A stretch of 63,727 bases of DNA, counting the filler, from Sanchytrium tribonematis (lineage: Eukaryota): NCBI GenBank assembly GCA_018985235.1. It is 6 parts of 6 records of this genome, joined end to end, with 100 filler letters (N's around TTAATTAATTAA, not from the genome) between each part and the next. Parts side by side here need not be neighbours in the genome. Positions count along the whole stretch, not along the records: positions 19,690 to 26,122 come from JADGIG010000526.1; 5 more parts are not named here. The stretch is one strand, 5' to 3'. A model generated the notes under the pieces. The model was not told the origin of the DNA. It did not search any database and saw nothing but the letters and a program-made list of their open reading frames with translations. Position numbers and translations under genes: made by a program. Numbering within the stretch: the first letter of the stretch is position 1; every line of letters begins with the position of its first letter. Positions 1,197 to 30,800 of this stretch are shown one piece after another.

Positions 1197-2006
1197 TTAT
1201 TTCTCCTCTTGAAACGTATATTGTTCCACTTTAGTAGATTGATGGTTTCTTATGATTGCCATTTCAAACTCATCAGCTTCAATGCATGTAAATGATACAG
1301 ATTTTCTTTCAAAGTCAGTGTTTGGTACTCTTTTCAATGCCCCATGTACTGTCTCTCCACCATAGAAAGCTATAACTTCCCCTTTCTTCATCTTATCAAA
1401 TAGATACGCTCTATTATTAGGTCCCCTTTTAGAAACAAGGGCAAGAGGATGATCTATAATTTCCTCTTCTAAATTAATCCAAAATTGTATTGTAGGTCTG
1501 GCTATCGCAAAGTATCTTTTTAGAAGATCTAAACTTGACTTATATTTTCGCTGTAATATTGGCAGTAATGACATTAGTGTAAGGTCATTCAATTCTACTT
1601 TATCGACGTGCATTTTTGATTCAGTTAATTTTGATTTTTTAAATGTTAATACATCAGTACAAAAAACATCCTTTTTGTATTTGCTTTTTACAAAAGATTC
1701 CAAGTATTTGCTATAAGCAATCGTCTGAGTAAAACTGTTGTAAAAAATGTATTGCTGCTTCACGTTTTTAGCAATCCAATCTATTTTGCTTTCATCAAAT
1801 ACAATTTGCAAAAATTCAAAGCCATCTTTTTCCAATTCAAATTCTTGGGTAGATTGTACTGATGATTCATCTTTAGAGCACGAGTAAATTTCATCAATAG
1901 TCCCCACGTCAATTCCATAGTTTTCGTCATTTTTACTTTCAGGCTTCTCATATTGCTCTGTAACATCGACGCAAACATGTCCAAATATCAATAAATTCCA
2001 AAGCAT
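1197..2006 (-). CDS. AsaB/CmcJ/NvfI-like Fe(II)/2OG oxygenase (paralog 2)
   Basis: FELEKDGFEF, MHVD, IQFWINL...DHPLAL, MKKGEVIAF, VHGA, RKS; colinear with 224..988. Confidence 0.55.
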   Translation of the reverse strand: MLWNLLIFGHVCVDVTEQYEKPESKNDENYGIDVGTIDEIYSCSKDESSVQSTQEFELEKDGFEFLQIVFDESKIDWIAKNVKQQYIFYNSFTQTIAYSKYLESFVKSKYKKDVFCTDVLTFKKSKLTESKMHVDKVELNDLTLMSLLPILQRKYKSSLDLLKRYFAIARPTIQFWINLEEEIIDHPLALVSKRGPNNRAYLFDKMKKGEVIAFYGGETVHGALKRVPNTDFERKSVSFTCIEADEFEMAIIRNHQSTKVEQYTFQEEK

Positions 2007-3451: not shown

Positions 3452-6400
3452 TTTTTTTTTTCCTGTTTAATGCACCCACTAGTGAACTACGTGACTAGCA
3501 GGTGGTTATTTATTGAATCATCATAATGACGCACAATATTACTTATTTGAGCAATGTCTCTATTCGTAAATTCCTTATTTTCATATGTTGTTTGACCAAG
3601 TAAATTAAAAATGTAATCTAGTGGTTCTCTTTTATCTGCTATATTTATCGTATTTGTTAGATTTCTTTCTAAATGTCTGTCTAATGCTAATGATGCTTCT
3701 TTATCACAGATTTCATTCCAGTGTATTCCCGCGTGACCTTTAATCCATTTTGTGCTCACTTTTATTACATCTGCTAATTTATTATCACGTAACAATGCTA
3801 TTAAATTCACACTTCTCCATGACTTTTTATTGGATTTGATATTTTCAATGATTTGTAGGGAGGATTGATTATCGCAATAAATTGTTGGTTTCCAGTTTTT
3901 GGGCATCATTTGGATTGCCCTGTTGATTGTGTATAATTCTGCATGGGTGGAAGATGCTGTATGATTCTTTGATGATGATGCACATGTAATTTGTTTGATT
4001 TTATTGCCATTTTTAATATATAAAATGCATCCTGCCATGTGTTTTCCCCGAAGTGATGCATCAGTAAATATAGATTCAGATGCAATTTCTGGATGAGTAG
4101 TAACTTCATTTGTTGTATCTGAGCGATTATTTGGGAAATTTGATTGATTTGATGACGATGGCTGGAGTTGAACATGTTTTAAAGTGCAATGAAAAAGATG
4201 CAAATTTGATTTGAATCCAATATTAGCATCACAATCAAAGCAAGGTTGATTTATATGATATAATTGATGAAAAAATAGCCGCTTTAATGGTTTTATGGAC
4301 ATGATGTATCTGGTTTGTTTATGTGGTAAAAATTGCCAATCAAAATCATCTAGATTTTTGGTATTTTCCAGATCGTTGGATTTCCAGCACTTGTGATTAT
4401 GGTATTTATCGTGTAATTTATCCCAACGGTGTTTAAAATGAGTAAAATTGAAAAATCTGTACAATATTTCGCTGTTGAAATATTTTGGTATTCCAGCTGA
4501 TTTCTTCACAAATCCCTTAATCCAGGCATCTATTAGATCTGCTTTGGTTTTTGTATATTTTAATATGCACATTGCATATTCCAGCTTGGGTAATAGAAAG
4601 ACTTTTAGATACAACAATTTGGAAATTATTTGCATTCCCCCCTTGAAATTCCCCACGTATTTTGAATTTTTGATTGCCAATTTGAGATTATCCATTTTGA
4701 TGTTAATAGTCTCCCCCGCACAGATGCCATTGTATTTTATTCGTACACCCAAAAATCTCTCATGTGTTATTGAACATTTCACATTAGCAAAATCATCCAA
4801 ATTAGGTACAAAAGCCCTTCTATGTAGTATTTTAGTCTTGGACGCATTTAGTGATAAACCTATATTATTTAAACATCCATTTAAACGTGATAAAACCCAT
4901 GCTGGATCTACATTCTCAGAAACCACGCATGCCAAGTCATCAGCATACATTTGTATTTGGATGTGCGCATGTCTAAATTCGTTGTTAATATGATAAGCCA
5001 GGAATAATGAGAATATCACAGGACTCAAAGGAGAGCCCTGCAATATTCCATTATGAATTTTAACAAAATGGGATTTTTCACCATAAATCAACAGAGAGAT
5101 GTATTGCTTGAAGATCAACAAGCACATGATTAGGTACAACATGGCAGATTCAATAAATTTAAACAAGAATGATTCTAATTCTCTATGTTTTATCATATCG
5201 AATGCTTTCGACATGTCTCCAAGTATTAGAAAACAGCGCTTTCTTTTGTTCTTATTGCGTCCCTCGTAATAGTGTCTAGTATTAGAATGGATTTGCATCA
5301 CAGCGTCTTCACAGCCAGTACCAAAAGTATAAGCGAATTGATTTGATGCTTTTGGCAACAAATCAATAATTATTGGTTTAAGCAGCTTTTCCAGGATCTT
5401 CTTCAACACACTACTTAGACTGATTGGTCTGTAGTTATCAATTCTATTTGCGGCTCCAGATTTAAAAATTGGCACCACTAAATTCTTATGAAAATAATCA
5501 GGGGTGAAACCAAATTCAAACATTTGATTGTAAAGAAGAGCGAGTAAAGGTGTGACATAATCGATCACTAATTGAAGTGAATCATACAGAATATCATCAT
5601 TTCCTGGTACACGTCTCCTGGGTGCTTTATTTATTATATTTCTAATTTCATCATTTGTGAATTTATGGGTGGTATTTAATTTGGATCTGGCTCGTCTTTT
5701 GACGTAATTTAGATCCATTTTTTGGTGCGTATGAAATCTAGTTGATAATTTATCTACATAGGTATTCTTCTTATCTGGGTTTAAATGATTAATCGTATTT
5801 TTAAATCTGTACATTTTACTGCTAATTATTTTAATTTGACTATTGCGTGGTAAGGCAGCAATTGATTTATACATGGCCTTGAAGTCAAATGTAGTATCTG
5901 GTATTTCTTCTTCAATGGTGTACTGGTCAATAAAATCAATTTCCATTTCATTTCTAATGATTTTCTTCGAGCATTTGGTCATTGTCTGGTTCAATATTGA
6001 TTTGATTTGCTTACAGTATTTGTTTGAAGTGTTGACTATGCTTTGCATTCCATCATCTTGGTCCATGGAGAGCATTGTATTTAGAGTTGTCTGGAAATCA
6101 GGAGAATTCTTATATTTTTTAAAACAATCTGCATATTCTTCTTTGATTTCATCAGTGATAATGTTTGGAATGTACCATGTATTCCTTTTGTTGAGTTGGA
6201 TCACTAATGATTCTGTTGATATCTCCGTGAAAATAGCCAGATGATCACTGATTAATGGTCCAATTTGAGTAGGCCCAATTTTATGAGCAATGGACTCATT
6301 CAACATGATTCCATCAATACATGATCCAGATGATACTCCTAGTCGTGTAATGGGATCTTCCACATCATAGTCATTAATTATGCAGCCTAGATCCGTGTAA

Positions 6401-6489
6401 ACATTATTTATAAAATTCCATTCATTATTATTTCTAATTTGGACCATGCCACAATTATAGTCACCAATCATTAGGAATTTATTAGATGA
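3452..6489 (-). mobile_element. Non-LTR retrotransposon: endonuclease end, reverse transcriptase, CCHC finger, RNase H, short 3' UTR and A10 tail; 5' end cut by contig end
   Basis: ORF 3487..6471: GDYN/IDG/SDH (APE), NYRPISL, DMSKAFD, QGSPLSP, YADD (RT), CFDC..HLFHC, FTDAS/AEL/CDNQS/KGHAGIHWNEICD (RNase H); T10 at 3452-3461 on the plus strand. Confidence 0.92.
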
Positions 6490-6589
6490 NNNNNNNNNNN
6501 NNNNNNNNNNNNNNNNNNNNNNNNNNNNNNNNNTTAATTAATTAANNNNNNNNNNNNNNNNNNNNNNNNNNNNNNNNNNNNNNNNNNNN
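6490..6589. other. Artificial contig linker
   Basis: N44-TTAATTAATTAA-N44, with stops in all six frames. Confidence 0.98.
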
Positions 6590-19589: not shown

Positions 19590-19689
19590 NNNNNNNNNNN
19601 NNNNNNNNNNNNNNNNNNNNNNNNNNNNNNNNNTTAATTAATTAANNNNNNNNNNNNNNNNNNNNNNNNNNNNNNNNNNNNNNNNNNNN
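19590..19689. other. Artificial contig linker
   Basis: N44-TTAATTAATTAA-N44. Confidence 0.98.
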
Positions 19690-19814
19690 GCACGAGAACA
19701 AGTTGGAGGAGATAGAAATGCATCTGAGCTAGTTATTGAGCTGCCTATCACAGCTGCAGTAGCTAATTTCTTCCATCCAACAGGAGTGGCAAATGCAAGT
19801 GGCAATATAAACAT
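19690..19814 (-). CDS. N-terminus of a third subtilisin-array paralog (truncated at contig end)
   Basis: MFILPLAFATPVGWKKLATAAVIGSSITSSDAFLSPPTCSR aligns with the N-terminus of 20029..21162; upstream flank is homologous too. Confidence 0.7.
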
Positions 19815-19906
19815 ACGACATGATACCATGATGTGTTTTTAAAGTCACAAATGACGACAAATTGAATTCATGTGATTTGCAATTTCAAAGACATTGACAC
19901 CATATT

Positions 19907-19953
19907 GTCATTTGATGGGTCATTTGATGGGTCATTTGATGAGTCATCTGATG
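19907..19953. repeat. 12-nt tandem repeat GTCATTTGATGG, about 4 copies
   Basis: gtcatttgatgg gtcatttgatgg gtcatttgatga gtcatctgatg. Confidence 0.85.
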
Positions 19954-20028
19954 TATCCTCACGTCATTAAATCACGACATATGATGTGATTTTAATGCTC
20001 AAGTGGATCCCCAAGTTACAAAATAGAT

Positions 20029-21162
20029 TTATTCGGGAATCGCATTTAAGAATCGATCTGATGCGCCATTTAATCCAATAGGATTAACAGTATGATGTGC
20101 ATTAGCCAATAATTCATAAAATACATCTAATTTACCTGCTCCTAAATATCCAGCAACTGCTCCTGCCACATATGGTGCTGCAAATGAGGTCCCATGAATA
20201 AATTCACGAGTGGGTTGAAATCCAAATATATTGTGATTGAATTTCTGTATGCTACCAGGCGCAAAGATATTCACAGCATTTCCAAAATTAGAATAAAATG
20301 TGATGGTGTTATCTGGATTTACAGCACCCACGACTAGTATACCCGGTATTCTGTTGATTGGATCCGCCATATAACCATCTTTATGCTCATTTCCAGCTGC
20401 TTTGACAATTACAGCTCCTTTTTGTAATAATATCTCAATGAGTCTTTTGACCAATTGAAATCCTTCTAATTCAATATCTGGGCAATCTGATATGTCAAAT
20501 CCAATAGACATATTAATAACCACTGGTTGGTGATGTCTATCCATATCTTCGAGGACATGTCTCAGTGCTTTAGCCAAAGTAGGCATAAAAAATCCACCTT
20601 GATGCATAATTTTAAGCGGAATGATTTCTGCTTCTGGTGCTACCCCAAATTCTTTACTGCCAATAATAGCAGCACAATAAGTACCATGTAAGTGATAATC
20701 CCATGTATCTGTTCGATGTTCGTCTTGTTTTTGAGTAAAATCAATGGCTTTTCCCAAATGTTTAAATGTCGCTTGATTGATAATTCCATTTGTAAATCCA
20801 GAATCAATGACATATGCTTTCACGCCACTGCCTAAATGGGGCGGGAGTGTATTCGCGTGTTGTTCTTCACTTGTTAAATGAGTGAAAATGGTGGAAGTTG
20901 TGATGGCTTTAATGCCCCACTGCATGATATCCAGAACAGCTCTACGGGTCATTTCATTATCACAGACAGCTGTGACACATGTTCTGTATGCTTTCTGATT
21001 GAATAATGGCAGTGTATTGGCACTTAATGCTTGACGGGAACAGAAACCATTAAAAGGTACAGAAGGTACAAATGCATTTGTGCCAGCAAGTGCACCCAAT
21101 GCTGCAGCTTGGGCTGCTTTTTTGAAGCCAGGAATGGCAAATAACAATGGCAACAATATCAT
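20029..21162 (-). CDS. Subtilisin-like S8 serine protease (proteinase K-like) with unusual presequence
   Basis: Triad VIDSG / HGT / GTSFAAP, oxyanion AAGNE; no I9 propeptide apparent. Confidence 0.93.
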   Translation of the reverse strand: MILLPLLFAIPGFKKAAQAAALGALAGTNAFVPSVPFNGFCSRQALSANTLPLFNQKAYRTCVTAVCDNEMTRRAVLDIMQWGIKAITTSTIFTHLTSEEQHANTLPPHLGSGVKAYVIDSGFTNGIINQATFKHLGKAIDFTQKQDEHRTDTWDYHLHGTYCAAIIGSKEFGVAPEAEIIPLKIMHQGGFFMPTLAKALRHVLEDMDRHHQPVVINMSIGFDISDCPDIELEGFQLVKRLIEILLQKGAVIVKAAGNEHKDGYMADPINRIPGILVVGAVNPDNTITFYSNFGNAVNIFAPGSIQKFNHNIFGFQPTREFIHGTSFAAPYVAGAVAGYLGAGKLDVFYELLANAHHTVNPIGLNGASDRFLNAIPE

Positions 21163-21386
21163 GAATGATAAATGGCATCATGATGGATTTTAAAGTGACA
21201 AAATGACGACATTTCCAATTCATGTGATTTGCAATTCAACAATTATGAGCTCATTTTCCTTATCCAATCTCCAGATATGGATCATTTGACAGGCTCCTTA
21301 CATCATCAATTCATGATTTGATTATCCGATAGGGTTATGACGTCATTTTAATGCTCATGTGAATCTCCAAGTTACAAAATATTTAT

Positions 21387-22526
21387 TCACGGTTCTTCTG
21401 CATTTGCATTGACCATAATGGCAGGCGTACCATGCTGATCTTGCACCACATTATGGGTGGCATATTTTAGTAATGTACCAAGTATATCTTGTTGTTTTAT
21501 CCCATTTGATAATAATAATGCAATTATCGCAGCAACACGCGGTGCTGCAAATGACGTACCTACAAGATATTCATCCGTTGTTTTGTATTTAAATAAGCCA
21601 TGCACTGTTTTTCGAACACTACCAGGTCCATTTATCGTAATGGAGGGTCCATAATTTGCAAAATCTAATATTTTATGATTTTGATCTACAGCTCCAACTA
21701 GAATCACACCGGGTATTCTATTAATAGGATCCACTATATAAGCATCTTTCCCTTCATTCCCAGCTGCTTTCACAATAATAACTTGATTTTTCAATAAATC
21801 TTTAATTTGATGTTGCACGATATTTAATCCCTCCAATGCGATATTCGGACAAAGTGACACATCGACACCCAATGACATATTTACAACAACTTTGGCATCC
21901 GGATGATCTTGAATATATTGCTGTATATGCTCTAATGCTCTTGCGACTGCAATATATCCGCCTCTCTTTTTATGAACGACTTTCAAGACATTTACTTGAG
22001 CATGTGGTGCGATTCCGTATTCTTTACTGCCAATTATAGCAGTGCAATACGTGCCATGTCTCATATAATCCCATGTATCTGATATTTCATGATCATCTAA
22101 TCCTGCTGTAAAATCAATGACACGCACTGGATTTATAAATTCACCTGTTAATGCGTTATCAAATCCAGTATCAATGACGAATAAAATCACATCTTCGCCT
22201 TTATGGTTCAATTGGGAATATCGATTTGGTTCATTTTCAATTGCATGGGAAATGGATGGCACTCTGGTTAATCCTAATATGAATAAAGCAGATGCAGAAA
22301 TGCTTTTTAATACCTCTCTACGATTACATGGTCCTGAATTCATTTGACAATTCATCAATGGATGATTTTCTATATTTATTATTCGTGTGCAAGATTGTGC
22401 TGCAGAGGGTATATTAGAACCCATAAATGCACTACTACTAGCAACGAGAGCACCTACTGCAGCAGATTTGATAAGTGGGATGGAATAACGAGTGGCTATT
22501 GTAAATACAATTGAATATAAAATCAT
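21387..22526 (-). CDS. Subtilisin-like S8 serine protease with unusual presequence
   Basis: VIDTG / HGT / GTSFAAP, AAGNE; start taken as MILYSIVF (22526) by alignment to the paralogs. Confidence 0.92.
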   Translation of the reverse strand: MILYSIVFTIATRYSIPLIKSAAVGALVASSSAFMGSNIPSAAQSCTRIINIENHPLMNCQMNSGPCNRREVLKSISASALFILGLTRVPSISHAIENEPNRYSQLNHKGEDVILFVIDTGFDNALTGEFINPVRVIDFTAGLDDHEISDTWDYMRHGTYCTAIIGSKEYGIAPHAQVNVLKVVHKKRGGYIAVARALEHIQQYIQDHPDAKVVVNMSLGVDVSLCPNIALEGLNIVQHQIKDLLKNQVIIVKAAGNEGKDAYIVDPINRIPGVILVGAVDQNHKILDFANYGPSITINGPGSVRKTVHGLFKYKTTDEYLVGTSFAAPRVAAIIALLLSNGIKQQDILGTLLKYATHNVVQDQHGTPAIMVNANAEEP

Positions 22527-22906
22527 GTGCAATGATGTGATTAGAAATGACGACATTAAAATCAATGCGCATGTCATGTGAAGGGTCATTTGTATTTTAT
22601 CGTGTAATCATTGCAAATTGATTTGTCGAATGCACCATGAAATGACGTGATTTTGTAGCACGTGATGCTCCTTGAAAAAAGATACTATCAGTGAGCTGTT
22701 GATTTCAATTTGACTTTCTCAAACTATTTCAGATACCAAATAACTTTAATTAGTAAATGCTCTTTGTTGTTTCTTTTTCGTGCGACAAAGGGGCTTTAGT
22801 CAATTTGAACTGGGGTTCTCTTGAAACGAGAGAGGAACTGTAATTGGGTGATGTTGAGTACAATATGCTCCGTTTAAAATGTGATCAATTCCCCTTTCCA
22901 AACCAA

Positions 22907-23134
22907 ATGTTGCTCATTTCTCTTCTTGCTGCTGTTCCATTAGTTGGAAAAAATGAACCAAATGGCGTCGCATACAAAGTCCCCATCAGTGCTCAGTCTA
23001 CCGCCACGCCAGAAACAACTAAGAAATCACAATGTGGATTTCTGTGCGTGGCCGCTGCTTCATTAGGGGCAAATATAATTTCTATTGGTGCGTTTTTGGG
23101 TTGGCTTGGTTGGTCAATGCAACAACATCGATAA
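22907..23134 (+). CDS. Small secreted or membrane peptide, 75 aa
   Basis: MLLISLLAAVPL signal-like start, hydrophobic C-terminal segment, stop followed by ATAAATAA. Confidence 0.6.
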   Translation: MLLISLLAAVPLVGKNEPNGVAYKVPISAQSTATPETTKKSQCGFLCVAAASLGANIISIGAFLGWLGWSMQQHR

Positions 23135-23250
23135 ATAAATAATGACTTCACTTCATTCTGTATTTCTGATTAATTTGACTGTCGAGTCATACGCTATAGA
23201 TCCCCACTGCAAGAACTTTCATTGCTCAAATCGATTGTGAAATTCAATAT

Positions 23251-24147
23251 TTATTCTGTTGGTCCGACTAATCTCAACATTTCAGTTGCTGTGGGTCTCT
23301 TTACTGGATTACAATGCATCATTCTAGCAGCAGCCAGCATCGCAATGTAATAATGGTGGTAAATCGACTCTTTTTTAAATCCTTCCTTCAAATGTTGAAT
23401 ATGTGACTCTTTAAAACAACTTTCAATCAGATCCTTTTGAAATCCAGATTCAAAAAGACCGTCTTTGTTTGACACTATGTCGGTTGCTAATGCAATGGAT
23501 TTACCAAGTGCAAACATATCCAATTTTTCAGAATCCATTTCGGGAATTGGCAGCTTTCTTGAATAAAAAGCTATTTTCACTTTTGGATCCCAATAATACT
23601 CCGTTCCTACAAATTTGGTGACTTCCTTGTGCATTTTTGACATGTTAAAGTCGATTAATTTGAAGATGCCATTGCAAACAACAATATTATCAAGTTTAAT
23701 GTCTAGATGATAAATGTTATTTTGATGCAAGTACTCCAATGCTTCCAACATTGAATAAATAAACTCTAAAAGAGACTCAATTGCCATTTTACCATTTATG
23801 ACGAAATCAGATAAATCTTCTTGGCAAAATTCTGTCACCAATCCAAATGATTTAATAGATTTGTCTGTTTCTTTAAAAACTGCAAATAGTTTGACAATAT
23901 TGGGATGATCCAACATTTTCATAATCTTTCCTTCATTCAAAATGCTTTTATAATAAGAATAATGCCTAGAATCATTATCTTTAAAGGAGTATTTGGGTGA
24001 GAATTCAATTCTTTTCATAAAATATACTGTATCTTCTATTTTGATTTGCCCATAGCCAGCTCTAACACCTGTTGGCATATTTCCATTCTTTGAATCTTTA
24101 TACTTTAATGTAAATGGGGGCAATACCAAATATGAGATCCATATCAT
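23251..24147 (-). CDS. Ser/Thr protein kinase, divergent, hydrophobic N-terminus
   Basis: GYGQI, MKR, LDHPNIVKL, HLDIKLDN, LIDFN, GTEYY, DMFALG; ATG at 24147 (MIWISYLVL). Confidence 0.85.
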   Translation of the reverse strand: MIWISYLVLPPFTLKYKDSKNGNMPTGVRAGYGQIKIEDTVYFMKRIEFSPKYSFKDNDSRHYSYYKSILNEGKIMKMLDHPNIVKLFAVFKETDKSIKSFGLVTEFCQEDLSDFVINGKMAIESLLEFIYSMLEALEYLHQNNIYHLDIKLDNIVVCNGIFKLIDFNMSKMHKEVTKFVGTEYYWDPKVKIAFYSRKLPIPEMDSEKLDMFALGKSIALATDIVSNKDGLFESGFQKDLIESCFKESHIQHLKEGFKKESIYHHYYIAMLAAARMMHCNPVKRPTATEMLRLVGPTE

Positions 24148-24238
24148 CAAGGGGGTTGAACAGAAAATCACTTTGATTATTTTTTGGGACAGTGATTGGT
24201 GGAAAAACAAATAAATTAATTTGGATTCCCAGGTTGTC

Positions 24239-25120
24239 ATGGTGAACCAAACAATTGAAATTGCCAGTAATCAATCAGAAACAATCAGATCACTTAATTT
24301 GCGTACAAATCATACCATTTCAGAATCCCCATTTGGCACATTATTCAGATCTACTATTTATTTGGCAAATAGTATCTACAATAATCAAATATTTGCAGTC
24401 AAGAAATTCAAAATCGTATCACCTGAACCACAACGCAGTCAAATTATACAAACATGTGAAAATGAAATTAATATTTGGGCAAATTTGCAACATCCCAATC
24501 TTGTGAGGTATTTTGAGAGTGACTGGGTCAATGAGTACATTCTAGTTGCTATGGAATATGTATCTGGATATGAGGGACAGATATCTTTAAAAGATTTATT
24601 AAGAAATCGTGCAAATATTCAAGAAACGTTGATTCAAGATATTACAAAACAAATCTTGTCTGCTTTGTCTTATCTACATGAAAGAGATGTCCATTTACTC
24701 AATTTAAATGCAAGTCATGTATTGTTAAATGGAAATCAAGTGAAACTAATTGGATTTAGTTATAAAAAAATTGGATATTTACAAGAAAATATATTTCATT
24801 CCGTTCAATTATTTAGATCCGAGTACAATTTGGCACCAGAAGTAGCTCAATATGCAATATTCACTAGTAAGGCAGATATATGGTCACTCGGATGTATTAT
24901 TATTCAAATGCTCAAGGGAGAATCACGTCGTACTTCTGAAATCTTATTAGGAAGTCGATTTTATAATTTTAATGAGCATGATTATACGCCTAAATATCCT
25001 GATAAACTATATCCAGAAATCAAAAGTTTACTTGATAAATGTTTGGTGGTTAATTATGAGCAAAGAAGCCCAGCCTCAGAATTATTGGAACATTCTTATT
25101 TGCAACGACAAGACAGATAA
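24239..25120 (+). CDS. STE/MAP3K-like pseudokinase
   Basis: FAVKK, LQHPNLVRY, APE and DIWSLGC retained, but the catalytic loop reads HLLNLNASH (no Asp) and DFG reads IGF. Confidence 0.8.
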   Translation: MVNQTIEIASNQSETIRSLNLRTNHTISESPFGTLFRSTIYLANSIYNNQIFAVKKFKIVSPEPQRSQIIQTCENEINIWANLQHPNLVRYFESDWVNEYILVAMEYVSGYEGQISLKDLLRNRANIQETLIQDITKQILSALSYLHERDVHLLNLNASHVLLNGNQVKLIGFSYKKIGYLQENIFHSVQLFRSEYNLAPEVAQYAIFTSKADIWSLGCIIIQMLKGESRRTSEILLGSRFYNFNEHDYTPKYPDKLYPEIKSLLDKCLVVNYEQRSPASELLEHSYLQRQDR

Positions 25121-25121
25121 T

Positions 25122-26122
25122 TTATTCAATTCCAATTTTAGAGTCTGATTTATGTTTTGGACTTAATTTATGTGCATTTGCTGCTTGTTTGAAATCATTT
25201 ACAAATTCTTCAAATTTACTCAAACTGACATAATGATTGTGATGGCATAATCCTGTTAAAAAGTTATTCTTATGCTCTAATGGCAAACTAAAGTAGTGAT
25301 GTGTCAAGGTGTTTTTTGTTTTTTGAGCATATTTGTAATTTCTGATGCGTTTTGAAATTAATAAATCATTTGCGATTTCATCAAAATTGGAGGTATCTAT
25401 TTGCCATTGTCTAAAGAAATTCAGCAAATTATTTCTCCAATACAATTCTAATTGAACGCCCTTGCCAGACAACTCGGCATAAATTTCATTCAACCACTGA
25501 TTAAATTTCAAGGGATCGATAAATGGATGTAGACCCAACAAATCATTTTTAAAGATAATTCTTTCAGGTTCTGTCAGTGTGGTGTATTTCCACAAAATAG
25601 CTCGTTTGGTGTTATCTGAGAGCTGTGAGAAACTTAAAATCAAGGATTCTTGAAAATCTTTTTTCATTTGAGATTGTTCTTGGCTAATAATCTTCCATTT
25701 AATACAAAATTGTGCAATCTTTTCATCAGGATTATAATTTGGAATAATACTTACTGCATAGAACTCACCAGTTGGCACAAATGCGGGACATAATTCTCTT
25801 AGAAACCTAATTTTGCGATTTGTATCCAGTCTAATATACTTTTGCTTTAAAATATGCATTGCTATATCATTCAAAACGAATCTGTTATCAAGCTCAATCA
25901 TTTCTTTATAAATTAAATCGATATCCAATTCTTCAAATTGCCATTTTTCACAAAATTGTTGGAATCTGTCCTTGAAATACAATTTATGCTCTACATTCTT
26001 CCAATATGCAAATGTTTTTTTGGTGATAAATTTGATGATATCTTTTTCAAATTGGTTTCTCTTTAAATCTGGTAATCTCAAGTATTTTTCAATTAAGAAT
26101 GACTTACAAATGGAAATTGAAG
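25122..26122 (-). CDS. Hypothetical protein with internal helical repeats (partial, open to contig end)
   Basis: Three units of FxxW...KY/HY..L....F...L; frame open up to the linker. Confidence 0.65.
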
Positions 26123-27861: not shown

Positions 27862-30800
27862 TTAAATTTCAGCTTGTCTATCTTTGCTAATGGTATGTAT
27901 ATCCATTAATTTGATACTTGAAATTAATTCTTTCATTATTGTTTTTAAATTTCCATTGTCAATATCTACAGTAGTGGCAATATTTTGACCAGTGGTATTT
28001 GTCAATGCAACAAATTCAATAAATCTTGTTTTAATGTAAGCAATTTTTAAAATATGGGTAAATTCAATCCCATCATCCTCAGAAACTCTACAAAGGGGAC
28101 CAACCACATCAATTGCAATTACTTTGGAATGAATTGATGTCCATATCAATTGTGATTTTGTGCAATTTGCCGCAGTTTGACAAATGTAGCATTTCTTGAT
28201 AAATTCATTAATATCTAGTTGTAAACCCATACAATAAATGTGGTACTTTAATGAGTTGTAAGAATATATTTTTCGCTCAATTAAGTCAAATGAAAAAAGA
28301 AGTCAAAAAAATGTATCGATTGGGCACAGTAAGTGATGTGGACCCATTGAAGATATTATTCTTGAAAAATTTAAATTTCTAATATTTTTAAATCAATTAT
28401 TAGTTACGATGGAATTTATAAATGGATTAAAAAACATTAATGATGGAACTTTTAAAACGTCAAGAAATTGATATGATGGGATATTAAAAAAATTATCTCG
28501 AACCTAAAGCAGCAACTCAATTAGTTGAAAACGATGATTAATATTTGATCAAATCAGTAGCAAAGCATATTAAAAAAAAATCTCGTACCTAAAGCAGCAA
28601 CACAATTAGTTGAAAACGATGATTAGAAGCAAAGCATATTTATAAAGTTGAAAGCAAATTTTGTCTATGTGCCAGTGGTAAGATTGTATTTGCAAATGAA
28701 ATTGCAATTTAAATAGATGTGGGAACCATAGAAACATTAGCAACCACCAGAGCAAATTGAATGTCAATTTTTTCTGGTTTTAGTGAGAAACTAAATGTTA
28801 AAGTTAGGACCTTCAAAGGTTTATAGCAAGAATTAAAAATTTGATTTTGGAATTTAATGATTGGACCAAATTCGTAAGAAAAACACATATATGCCATTAT
28901 TCGACGTGATCGTTGTACCTCACCTCTAAAGTAAGACTGTTTTGAATATCATCATACTTTCGTTACACGAACTGCTGACCTGCACTACATTTGTTTAACT
29001 CGAAATAAGCTTCATCTCCAAAGAAAAAATTTGTCCCAAAGTGAATTGTTACACACATCTTTGACAAAGAATGGCCAATATACTTACCATATTTAGTTAG
29101 TGCCTTCTCATTGGCATACATTTCCTTCTACATCATGCTGTAATTCATTTCTGACTCATCCAATGCCTTGGAAAATAGTCCAATTAATCGAACATTCTGA
29201 TACAATGTACATCCAATGGCACATGCTGATGCATCCGTATACAAGTCATACTCTCCCATCTCAAAATATTCCAATTTTGTCGATTCTAATAATTCAATTT
29301 GTAGGCATCTTCTGCTGCTTCTGTCCATTCAAATGGCTTCAATGCACATGTCTGACGTATTGGATGGATCACATCTTCAGAATTCAAAATAAATGGGCGT
29401 ACCCAGGACAGCATTCCCAATAATCTTTGACACTCTCTTTTATCAATAGGACTCTTTACTCCTTTTAATTTGATTAAATAACCTAGTTTACACGTATACC
29501 CAGTACAGTCTACTTTAAATCCACAAAATTCAATGCTGGATTGTAATAGTTTGGATTTCTTCCATTTGATATTGAAATTCTTCCATGTTGCAATTTCAAT
29601 GAATTTCTTCACTCTTTGATAAAGTTCTTCAATATTTGTGTCTTTGAGAACCACAGCATCCACAAAAACAGCCTTGTTTTCCATGTCAAATGCATTTGTC
29701 AACTCATATTGGAAAATACCGACACTTTGCTTTAGACCTTGGCCCAAAACAAGCATCAAATATTGACCAAATGGAGTTACTACAGAGGTCAATTTGCCAG
29801 TCTCTGCGCATACTGGAATGTTATAATACCCATCCTTTAAGTCAAATATGGATAAATACCAAAAACCTGCAAATGCTTGTAATTGATCCAGTAACAATGG
29901 TAATAGTTATCCAACATGCACTGTGTATTGGTTCAATCTTCTATAGTCAGTGACACTCCTCCAATCACCATTTCCTTGGGGAACAAATGTCATAATTACC
30001 CCTTCTAACAAAATATTTTGCTTCCATTTCTACTATTTTATCATGAAATATGTCAATATTTGGGGATTTGTGGAATCTCTGTCTCAATTTGGAACTATCT
30101 ACCCGAGGCATAAATTTAATACTCACGGGATTAATATCAGCAGGGCGTGAATAATCATGAACCAACTTCAAGAAATCATTATGGGATCTGTTCTGCACAG
30201 TTTCAATGTTCCATACCAACTTGCAACCCAGCTTTTACTCTAAAATATTCCTCCCAATTATCGGAAGAGACAAATACTCCGAATCCAGCACTAAAAATGG
30301 CTGATCGGATATCAAGACATTGCCAAACTGCACATCCACAGCAGCGTTACCCAGACATGATATAGGTGACCCTCCACCAACCACTTAAGCTGCAGTCTCT
30401 TTCACATCCAATTTTAATAAATCTATCATTTCTCGAGCAAGCGCAGAAGAACCAGCACCAGTGTCAAACAAAACATCACAATCCATTTTATTGAGTTTAA
30501 TCTCGTGGCTGCGTGTGACATTGACCTCATTAATGACACCCAAATTGTTAATCTTCTTTGGTGCTTTTTCCTTTTCTCTCTATCTTTCCTTCTCTCTCTC
30601 TTTCCTTTTACTCCTTGCATTTCTGAAAACTGTGTTGGTGTGTCTTCTCACAATATGGACATCTGCTTGTACTGAATCTTTGTTCACGATATTCACGATT
30701 TGACTTCTCAAATCTCTCAGATGCCATCACAGCGTCTTTCAACTCTCTAAAATCTTTGTAATGGTTCCCAATGACATACTTCTTGGTAGAATAAAGTAGA

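Follow-up and report, generated by a model that had tools for sequence, protein, structure and literature searches.

Three tandem genes for subtilisin-like (S8) proteases have been identified in the DNA of Sanchytrium tribonematis, each beginning with a layered leader that resembles an address for the plastid of an algal host. The window, meaning the whole 63.7-kb stretch that was analysed, is AT-rich, gene-dense and of fungal type. It consists of contigs joined by artificial N44-TTAATTAATTAA-N44 linkers (at 6490, 13048, 19590-19689, 26123 and 32644), and since the joined contigs are unrelated, gene order across these linkers is meaningless. The array sits on one 6.4-kb contig, 19690-26122, where the paralogs p2, p1 and p3 lie head to tail, all on the minus strand. 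The protein encoded by p2 (21387..22526) has 379 amino acids from its promoter-supported ATG, and that of p1 (20029..21162) has 377. Only the first 41 codons of p3 (19690..19814) are present; the contig end cuts the gene here, the linker at 19590..19689 marking the end of a contig rather than of a gene. A 483-nt contig of run X1 prolongs p3 in frame into the S8 domain, reaching a p1-like S8 start about 115 codons past the ATG (loose end translated by eye).

The start codons used are those of the earlier note on this DNA. The p2 reading frame has an additional in-frame ATG upstream, at 22589, but the 10-nt motif TGTCGTCATT, of which there are only three copies in the window, stands 29, 49 and 45 nt before the ATGs of p2 (22546..22555), p1 (21202..21211) and p3 (19850..19859), all on the minus strand, and thus favours the lower start. 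The blocks CACATGA, TGTCGTCATT and CATCAT are conserved upstream of p1, p2 and p3 (19850-19880, 21202-21232 and 22546-22580), and run X1 loose ends at 21198 and 22593 lead to further genes elsewhere with the same promoter as the array; it is possible that the genes with these shared upstream blocks form an infection regulon.

Catalytic domains lacking an I9 propeptide

Both complete proteins, p1 (D120/H159/N258/S326) and p2 (D119/H157/N257/S325), retain the S8 triad and the oxyanion Asn, and S8 is the sole Pfam match of each. Judged by the catalytic domain they are proteinase-K-type (S8A) subtilisins, and they have no I9 propeptide: I9 (PF05922) gave no match in p1, p2 or P0002 (Pfam, E<=0.1), nor in seven other proteins of the clade described below. 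The two fold like proteinase K and subtilisin (probability 99.9%) at about 30% identity, and the profile alignment begins at the catalytic domain, not in the leader. In an AlphaFold model built from a 109-sequence alignment, the p1 domain is confident, with a mean predicted local distance difference test score (pLDDT) of 82, while residues 25-73 are unfolded (pLDDT < 50); the leader is therefore not a divergent I9. (An earlier model from 3 sequences was poor, at pLDDT 57.) In the ESM Atlas, the relative P0073 matches only generic S8 clusters, with structure alignments beginning at residues 22-28, and a search there with residues 1-100 of p2 gave no usable match. Membership of the mycosins was rejected, TIGR03921 scoring 78-93 bits against a cut-off of 279. 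The description in the earlier note of three tandem paralogs, two of them complete with intact triads and none with an evident propeptide, thus agrees with the gene calls, the residue positions, Pfam and the model. The likeness to the proteinase K subfamily extends from the fold and catalytic residues to the position of the WGLxRI arm; the difference is that where those enzymes carry I9, these carry a signal and a basic disordered stretch, with or without a second signal and a pair of arginines.

The layered leaders

The best homologues, P0002, P0072, P0074, P0085 and P0143, are labelled Sanchytrium tribonematis in EukProt, while P0073, P0222, P0079 and P0084 (with two cluster mates) are environmental members of the same clade. 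Two loose ends of run X1, translated by eye, match P0072 exactly and have a depth similar to that of the contig; the labelled proteins are therefore probably paralogs in the same genome, and counting them as support from an independent species was rejected. P0143 and P0085 are consecutive open reading frames on one contig which together make up one S8 gene, split by an intron, a frameshift or an assembly error.

The leader itself is real and unusual; its role in targeting is predicted. All of the leader pieces quoted in the earlier note were found at the positions it gave. Each leader opens with a short hydrophobic stretch, residues 1-9 in p1 (21136..21162; 8-residue hydropathy 2.85) and in p2 (22500..22526). 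Since all 11 clade leaders and several other reading frames in the window begin in this way, the stretch is plausibly the signal peptide of the sanchytrid lineage, and it is predicted to serve secretion by the parasite. A second signal-like segment, basic and rich in Ala, follows in p1 (residues 10-30, 21073..21135; hydropathy 1.51) and p2 (10-33, 22428..22499) and ends at an Ala-Phe junction, as does the p3 leader, whose two segments together span residues 1-32 (19719..19814). Such a segment after a Pro/basic linker is seen in five of the 11 leaders (p1, p2, p3, P0002 and P0072; hydropathy 1.4-2.1), is weak in P0074 and P0143, and is absent from all four environmental leaders (hydropathy <=0.7). 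The four-part leader that had been described is thus present in p1 and p2, though it does not hold for the whole family.

The matrix published for ASAFind (PMC4329603 Table S2) was applied to the Ala-Phe junction on its own, without SignalP, and the best site within the first 45 residues was taken; ASAFind looks for F, W, Y or L at position +1 of an ASAFAP-like site and a transit score above 2. Matrix and transit scores are 8.19 and 5.26 for p1, 7.58 and 4.32 for p2, and 6.97 and 3.93 for p3 (the last on a shortened window), with Phe at +1 and two hydrophobic segments ahead of the site in each; shuffled sequences give p values of 0.0016, 0.011 and 0.16, respectively. Phe by itself accounts for 3.25 of the transit score, and the Ala-Phe pair alone yields about 5.5. 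A score of 6.0 is attained by 7 of 48 other reading frames in the window and by 11 of 61 further S8 proteins, so that an Ala-Phe pair alone is weak evidence. At a threshold of 6.9 the background falls to 1/48 and 8/61; all seven paralogs that probably belong to this genome have a best site of at least 6.9, and none of the four environmental relatives exceeds 5.3. P0143 has Ala-Tyr and then Val-Pro at the aligned site, and aromatic substitutions such as Tyr are allowed in the ASAFAP motif (PMC4329603). As Phe or Tyr, then, the site does recur in further paralogs, as the earlier note expected. The host endoplasmic reticulum (ER) may read the second signal, or the parasite's own signal peptidase may simply cut at the Ala-Phe junction. 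A keyword look-up for lumen proteins in ASAFind Table S1 gave no match.

Between the signal and the arm of the protease lies a stretch of 34-56 amino acids in which Lys and Arg at least equal Asp and Glu in all 10 leaders examined, and its first 20 positions never hold more than one acidic residue. In p1 (residues 31-71, 20950..21072) it is predicted to be disordered (pLDDT 33-35) and holds 3 Lys/Arg, 2 Asp/Glu and 3 Cys; in p2 (34-67, 22326..22427) it has a net charge of 0 and 3 Cys. Its basic character is strong in P0074 and in the environmental proteins, but weak in p1 (+1) and p2 (0). Ser and Thr make up 15% of it in p1 and p2, whereas diatom transit peptides have 32% Ser plus Thr and < 1% acidic residues (PMC3774753). 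What had been called an acid-poor, transit-like stretch is indeed poor in acids, and it is less rich in Ser and Thr than the transit peptides of diatoms.

Twin arginines, in the form RR-x-(V/I/T)-(L/I) and never KR, then follow in seven of the ten leaders (p1, p2, P0002, P0072, P0143, P0073 and P0222), 52-84 residues in and behind a signal, where leader identity across the clade is 16-43%. P0074, P0079 and P0084 lack the motif, and the corresponding region of p3 lies beyond the contig end. The pair had been expected to recur in further paralogs, and it does. In p1 the element runs from T-RR-AVL through the WG arm (residues 72-87, 20902..20949), a motif resembling signals for twin-arginine translocation (Tat) that overlaps the N-terminal arm of the mature domain in alignment and in the AlphaFold model. 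In p2, where motif rule and alignment give the best Tat-like signal of the family, N-RR-EVLK is followed by 13 uncharged residues, a degenerate WG arm and SHA (68-95, 22242..22325). Using a TatFind-like rule that was coded for this analysis and applied at residues 40-130 of other S8 proteins, p1 and p2 were the only matches among 50 reading frames in the window (16,847 amino acids), and there was none among 63 other S8 proteins. Of 128 canonical S8 proteins, only 1 has a comparable RR motif no more than 20 residues from the WG arm. Acquisition of a bacterial Tat protein by transfer was rejected, given the position of the arginines (52-84 residues from the start, preceded by a signal) and the fungal identity of the closest named relatives.

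In alignments the segment after the arginines corresponds to WGLxRI, the N-terminal arm of mature proteinase-K-type domains, and between p2 and a fungal PrB-type enzyme the alignment is free of gaps from the WG arm to the catalytic Asp. The earlier note had placed the catalytic domain after a separate hydrophobic stretch ending in xHA; this part of its description fails, the stretch being instead a remodelled arm of the domain itself. The remodelling goes with the arginines. The Arg or Lys at WG+4 is retained in 118 of 128 canonical S8 proteins and in all three members without RR, and is hydrophobic in six of the seven with it; the Trp of the arm has been lost in three of the seven; and local hydropathy is +0.3 to +1.4 in the six RR members computed, against -1.0 to -1.5 in those without RR. 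Since the hydrophobic region of a Tat signal requires such a change and a Kex2 site does not, this correlated gain counts in favour of Tat.

Fungal ancestry and surroundings of the array

In a tree of S8 domains (31 rows) the I9-less clade has a support of 100/99, and at 95/90 it groups with Paraphysoderma (Blastocladiomycota) and a single long branch that has no label, to the exclusion of 17 others. FastTree, run on 181 domains, gives the clade the same neighbours; most rows of this larger tree are unlabelled, and there is no labelled algal S8 among them. The clade and Paraphysoderma also have rare motifs in common (GTSF and VKxAGN variants), one of them confined to those 2 of 179 others. The contig has a GC content of 0.345, with values at third codon positions (GC3) of 0.22-0.25, in agreement with the fungal housekeeping genes of the window (GC3 0.29-0.34), and the depth of run X1 is even along the contig. 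Tree, shared motifs, composition and depth together lead us to reject algal contamination, for which the earlier note had named phylogeny and composition as the check; the genes are, on this evidence, fungal rather than algal in origin. As to the host, the named members of the clade are labelled S. tribonematis, and sanchytrids, which live attached to the outside of the alga and extend a rhizoid into it, are kept on the yellow-green alga Tribonema, with one species also listed on Ulothrix (PMC8371127), in agreement with the premise of an algal parasite.

Several further S8 proteins rank near the clade and have long prodomains: P0075 and P0150 (Quaeritorhiza) and P0141 and P0125 (Paraphysoderma). 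Pfam I9 gave no match in P0141, P0125 or P0150. Quaeritorhiza and Paraphysoderma are zoosporic fungi parasitic on algae. Two scans of metagenome contigs found no relative (0/230 and 0/204 pattern matches); word-based homologue searches missed known members (p1 and P0072), so that their blanks are not to be read as absence, and leave-one-out leader profiles score only 13-19 bits. Clade domains have 1.4 N-glycosylation sequons against 2.7, and 1.1 Cys against 3.4 (8 versus 179 domains), a difference that was not used, the comparison set being mostly unlabelled and likely bacterial.

The p1-p3 gap holds a short tandem repeat at 19905-19945, where one contig of run X1 is 12 nt shorter. Divergent from p2 lies a 75-codon reading frame (22907-23134, plus strand) whose product is hydrophobic over a short N-terminal stretch and again in a segment near the C-terminus, possibly a small membrane or secreted protein, and a back-to-back divergent pair of protein kinase genes (23251-25120) adjoins the array. 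Elsewhere in the window, a paralogous pair without a Pfam match (224-988 and 1197-2006, minus strand), in which the hydrophobic N-termini are very short, is a candidate lineage-specific secreted family. At 3487-6471 and 27862-29756 (both minus) lie a long reading frame with reverse transcriptase and RNase H motifs recognised by eye, apparently non-LTR-like, and short gypsy-like fragments.

A putative address for the complex plastid

We favour the reading, at a probability of roughly 0.55, that the I9-less subtilisins are secreted effector proteases addressed to the complex plastid of the host, the leader mimicking the host's own plastid address. That the RR subgroup also engages the thylakoid Tat system, by a cleaved signal or an uncleaved anchor, is possible at somewhat less than even odds. 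The trafficking is inferred at every step. The short hydrophobic leader would first bring the protein into the parasite's secretory pathway, and a transit-like peptide with an aromatic residue foremost (Phe or Tyr after Ala) would then be exposed in the lumen of the host ER. This might come about, as the earlier note proposed, through a weakly hydrophobic second signal that is read by a post-translational Sec route of the host; alternatively, the parasite may itself cut at the Ala-Phe junction, membrane or vesicle traffic delivering the protein to the host ER lumen, where SELMA would read the exposed phenylalanine. Weakly hydrophobic signals tend toward the post-translational Sec62/63 route. 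SELMA, TOC and TIC of the host would take the protein on to the stroma, the missing I9 chaperone plausibly holding it unfolded and inactive until then. In RR members the hydrophobic former WGLxRI arm would act as a Tat signal or uncleaved anchor, members without RR remaining in the stroma, and the protease would degrade photosynthetic proteins, harvesting nitrogen or damping the plastid's reactive oxygen defence.

On the host side, the xanthophyte Vaucheria has tatC in its plastid genome (PMC2765969 Table 1), and tripartite lumen presequences are the norm in ochrophyte-type algae (PMC7056318); nothing specific to xanthophytes came from PMC5462543. The leaders resemble these bipartite (ASAFAP) and tripartite presequences in the A-x-A site followed by an aromatic residue, the acid-poor linker of 34-50 amino acids and the second signal with RR. 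They differ in having an extra hydrophobic leader in front, lower Ser and Thr, conserved Cys, and an RR signal without a conserved terminal AxA, and in being encoded by a fungus that has no plastid. Among pathogens, Melampsora CTP1-3 and Puccinia Pst_12806 are likewise fungal secreted proteins in which a signal peptide precedes a transit-peptide mimic and which reach the chloroplast (PMC7966814, PMC7168614), and Fusarium FgTPP1 is a fungal secreted protease found partly in the stroma (bioRxiv 2024.08.30.610543). Those proteins enter the two-membrane plastids of land plants from the cytosol, whereas the address predicted here, known from sequence, resembles a presequence for a four-membrane plastid and includes a twin-arginine element. 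Pseudomonas HopN1, a pathogen protease acting on the photosystem II protein PsbQ, would be a functional analogue, though it is a bacterial cysteine protease, delivered by type III secretion and carrying a non-cleavable transit peptide.

A good deal weighs against the plastid reading, and more against its last step. Both of the sequenced sanchytrids are scored as having Kex2 (PMC8371127 supplement file 8); a Kex2 cut at RR before secretion would remove the address, and this is the main objection. L-N-R-R in P0002 also fits an LxxR Kex2-type site. We know of no route from rhizoid to host ER. The transit-like stretches of the genome paralogs have a net charge of only 0 to +5 and 6-22% Ser plus Thr, and the 2-3 conserved Cys in the leaders are unlike true transit peptides and find no account in a mimicry model. 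For two paralogs, P0002 and P0143, the best matrix site lies elsewhere than at the end of a second signal, and P0002 has Gly-Leu at the aligned site. Common ancestry, and probably a single genome, mean that the paralog counts are not independent, and a leader profile from 11 clade members, run against 541 frames in the window, found the three array genes only (next E 0.4), with no other cargo. As for the lumen, AlphaFold folds residues 81-110 of p1 with the domain (pLDDT 86-90, in a model driven by canonical homologues). The uncharged run reaches 13 or more residues in five of the seven RR members (13, 13, 18, 15 and 15), with 10 in P0072 and 11 in P0143. The xHA end that had been noted stands in p1 (QHA) and p2 (SHA) and is absent from the other five, so that an A-x-A site for the thylakoid peptidase is not conserved. 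Curated Tat-signal hidden Markov models, which are bacterial, gave no match in Pfam or NCBIfam at E<=10. On the tree, gain of RR takes two changes, 30% of bootstrap trees giving one, so that a single origin is allowed and no more. The lumen signal is weakened by the missing conserved AxA end and by the overlap with the arm of the catalytic domain.

The same observations can be read as those of secreted proteases of the ordinary digestive kind, in which a pro-domain that has shrunk and contains Cys is removed by Kex2 at RR; the hydrophobic arm, then N-terminal, would bind membranes or substrate, and the Ala-Phe junction would simply be the signal-peptidase site of a long signal peptide. We consider this unlikely, though it accounts for much. 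Besides the presence of Kex2, the disorder and RR seen here match K2PP fungal effectors, whose disordered N-terminal pro-domains end in KR, RR or LxxR (PMC8528282); S-K-R sites lie upstream of the arm in the sister Paraphysoderma proteins and in Rhizopus P0003; RRxVL aligns with the position of the C-terminal strand of I9; the p1 arm is modelled as folded; conserved Cys pairs would fit an oxidising secretory route; and Ala-Phe sites are frequent in S8 signal peptides, as the 11 of 61 at 6 or above indicate. It does not predict, however, the invariant RR, with KR absent in seven of seven, the two hydrophobic residues kept after it, or the aromatic residue that follows the signal in every genome paralog and in no environmental one. 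It likewise leaves unexplained the loss of the WG+4 charge and of Trp along with RR, and the acid-poor basic linker of the RR-less members, where neither an RR nor a KR pair immediately precedes the arm.

It is also conceivable, if improbable, that the proteins are targeted to the host and go elsewhere than the thylakoid -- to the plastid stroma, the periplastid space, the host ER or the host mitochondrion -- with the RR-hydrophobic helix a mere membrane anchor. Mitochondrial presequences are likewise basic and acid-poor, the thylakoid-peptidase site is not conserved, and the p2 linker lacks the net positive charge stated to be needed for plastid import (PMC4329603); set against these are the aromatic +1 after A-x-A, a plastid-specific feature, and the Tat pattern of RR-x-hydrophobic-hydrophobic with an uncharged stretch. 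Finally, the leader does resemble host presequences, as it might if the contig were algal or if gene or leader had been captured from the host by horizontal transfer. This we regard as very improbable: to the tree, motifs, contig composition and even depth described above can be added the GC3 of the leaders themselves, 0.21-0.34, which is in keeping with fungal genes of the window, and the fact that the RR segment aligns to the arm of the fungal enzyme itself, a sign of remodelling in situ.

Returning to the plastid reading, relatives without the second signal are without the aromatic site as well, although they retain the signal and basic stretch, with or without RR, and this slightly favours a plastid-address module added for a four-membrane plastid. 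A fuller version, which is tentative and on the doubtful side, is one of modular, host-tuned addressing in a parasite from an early-diverging fungal lineage: an ancestral signal and transit mimic, as in the four environmental relatives, that would suit green-algal plastids; an RR thylakoid signal carved from the protease arm; and then, in the xanthophyte parasite, a nested ER signal and ASAFAP Phe, the whole leading across five host membranes to the lumen, with targeting replacing propeptide control.

Mimicry of transit peptides is already known for effectors that enter the two-membrane chloroplasts of plants. Searches of titles and abstracts, covering few subscription journals, found no report of these sanchytrid genes, and no pathogen protein described as reaching a four-membrane plastid by the ASAFAP route or thylakoids by a Tat signal. 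If the plastid reading is true, a released foreign protein can join the import chain of the complex plastid, a point that matters for the question whether such import is necessarily co-translational, and the family would offer an example of a targeting signal evolved from part of an enzyme's own fold. It would also provide a first candidate class of effectors for the zoosporic parasites under which algal populations and cultures collapse.

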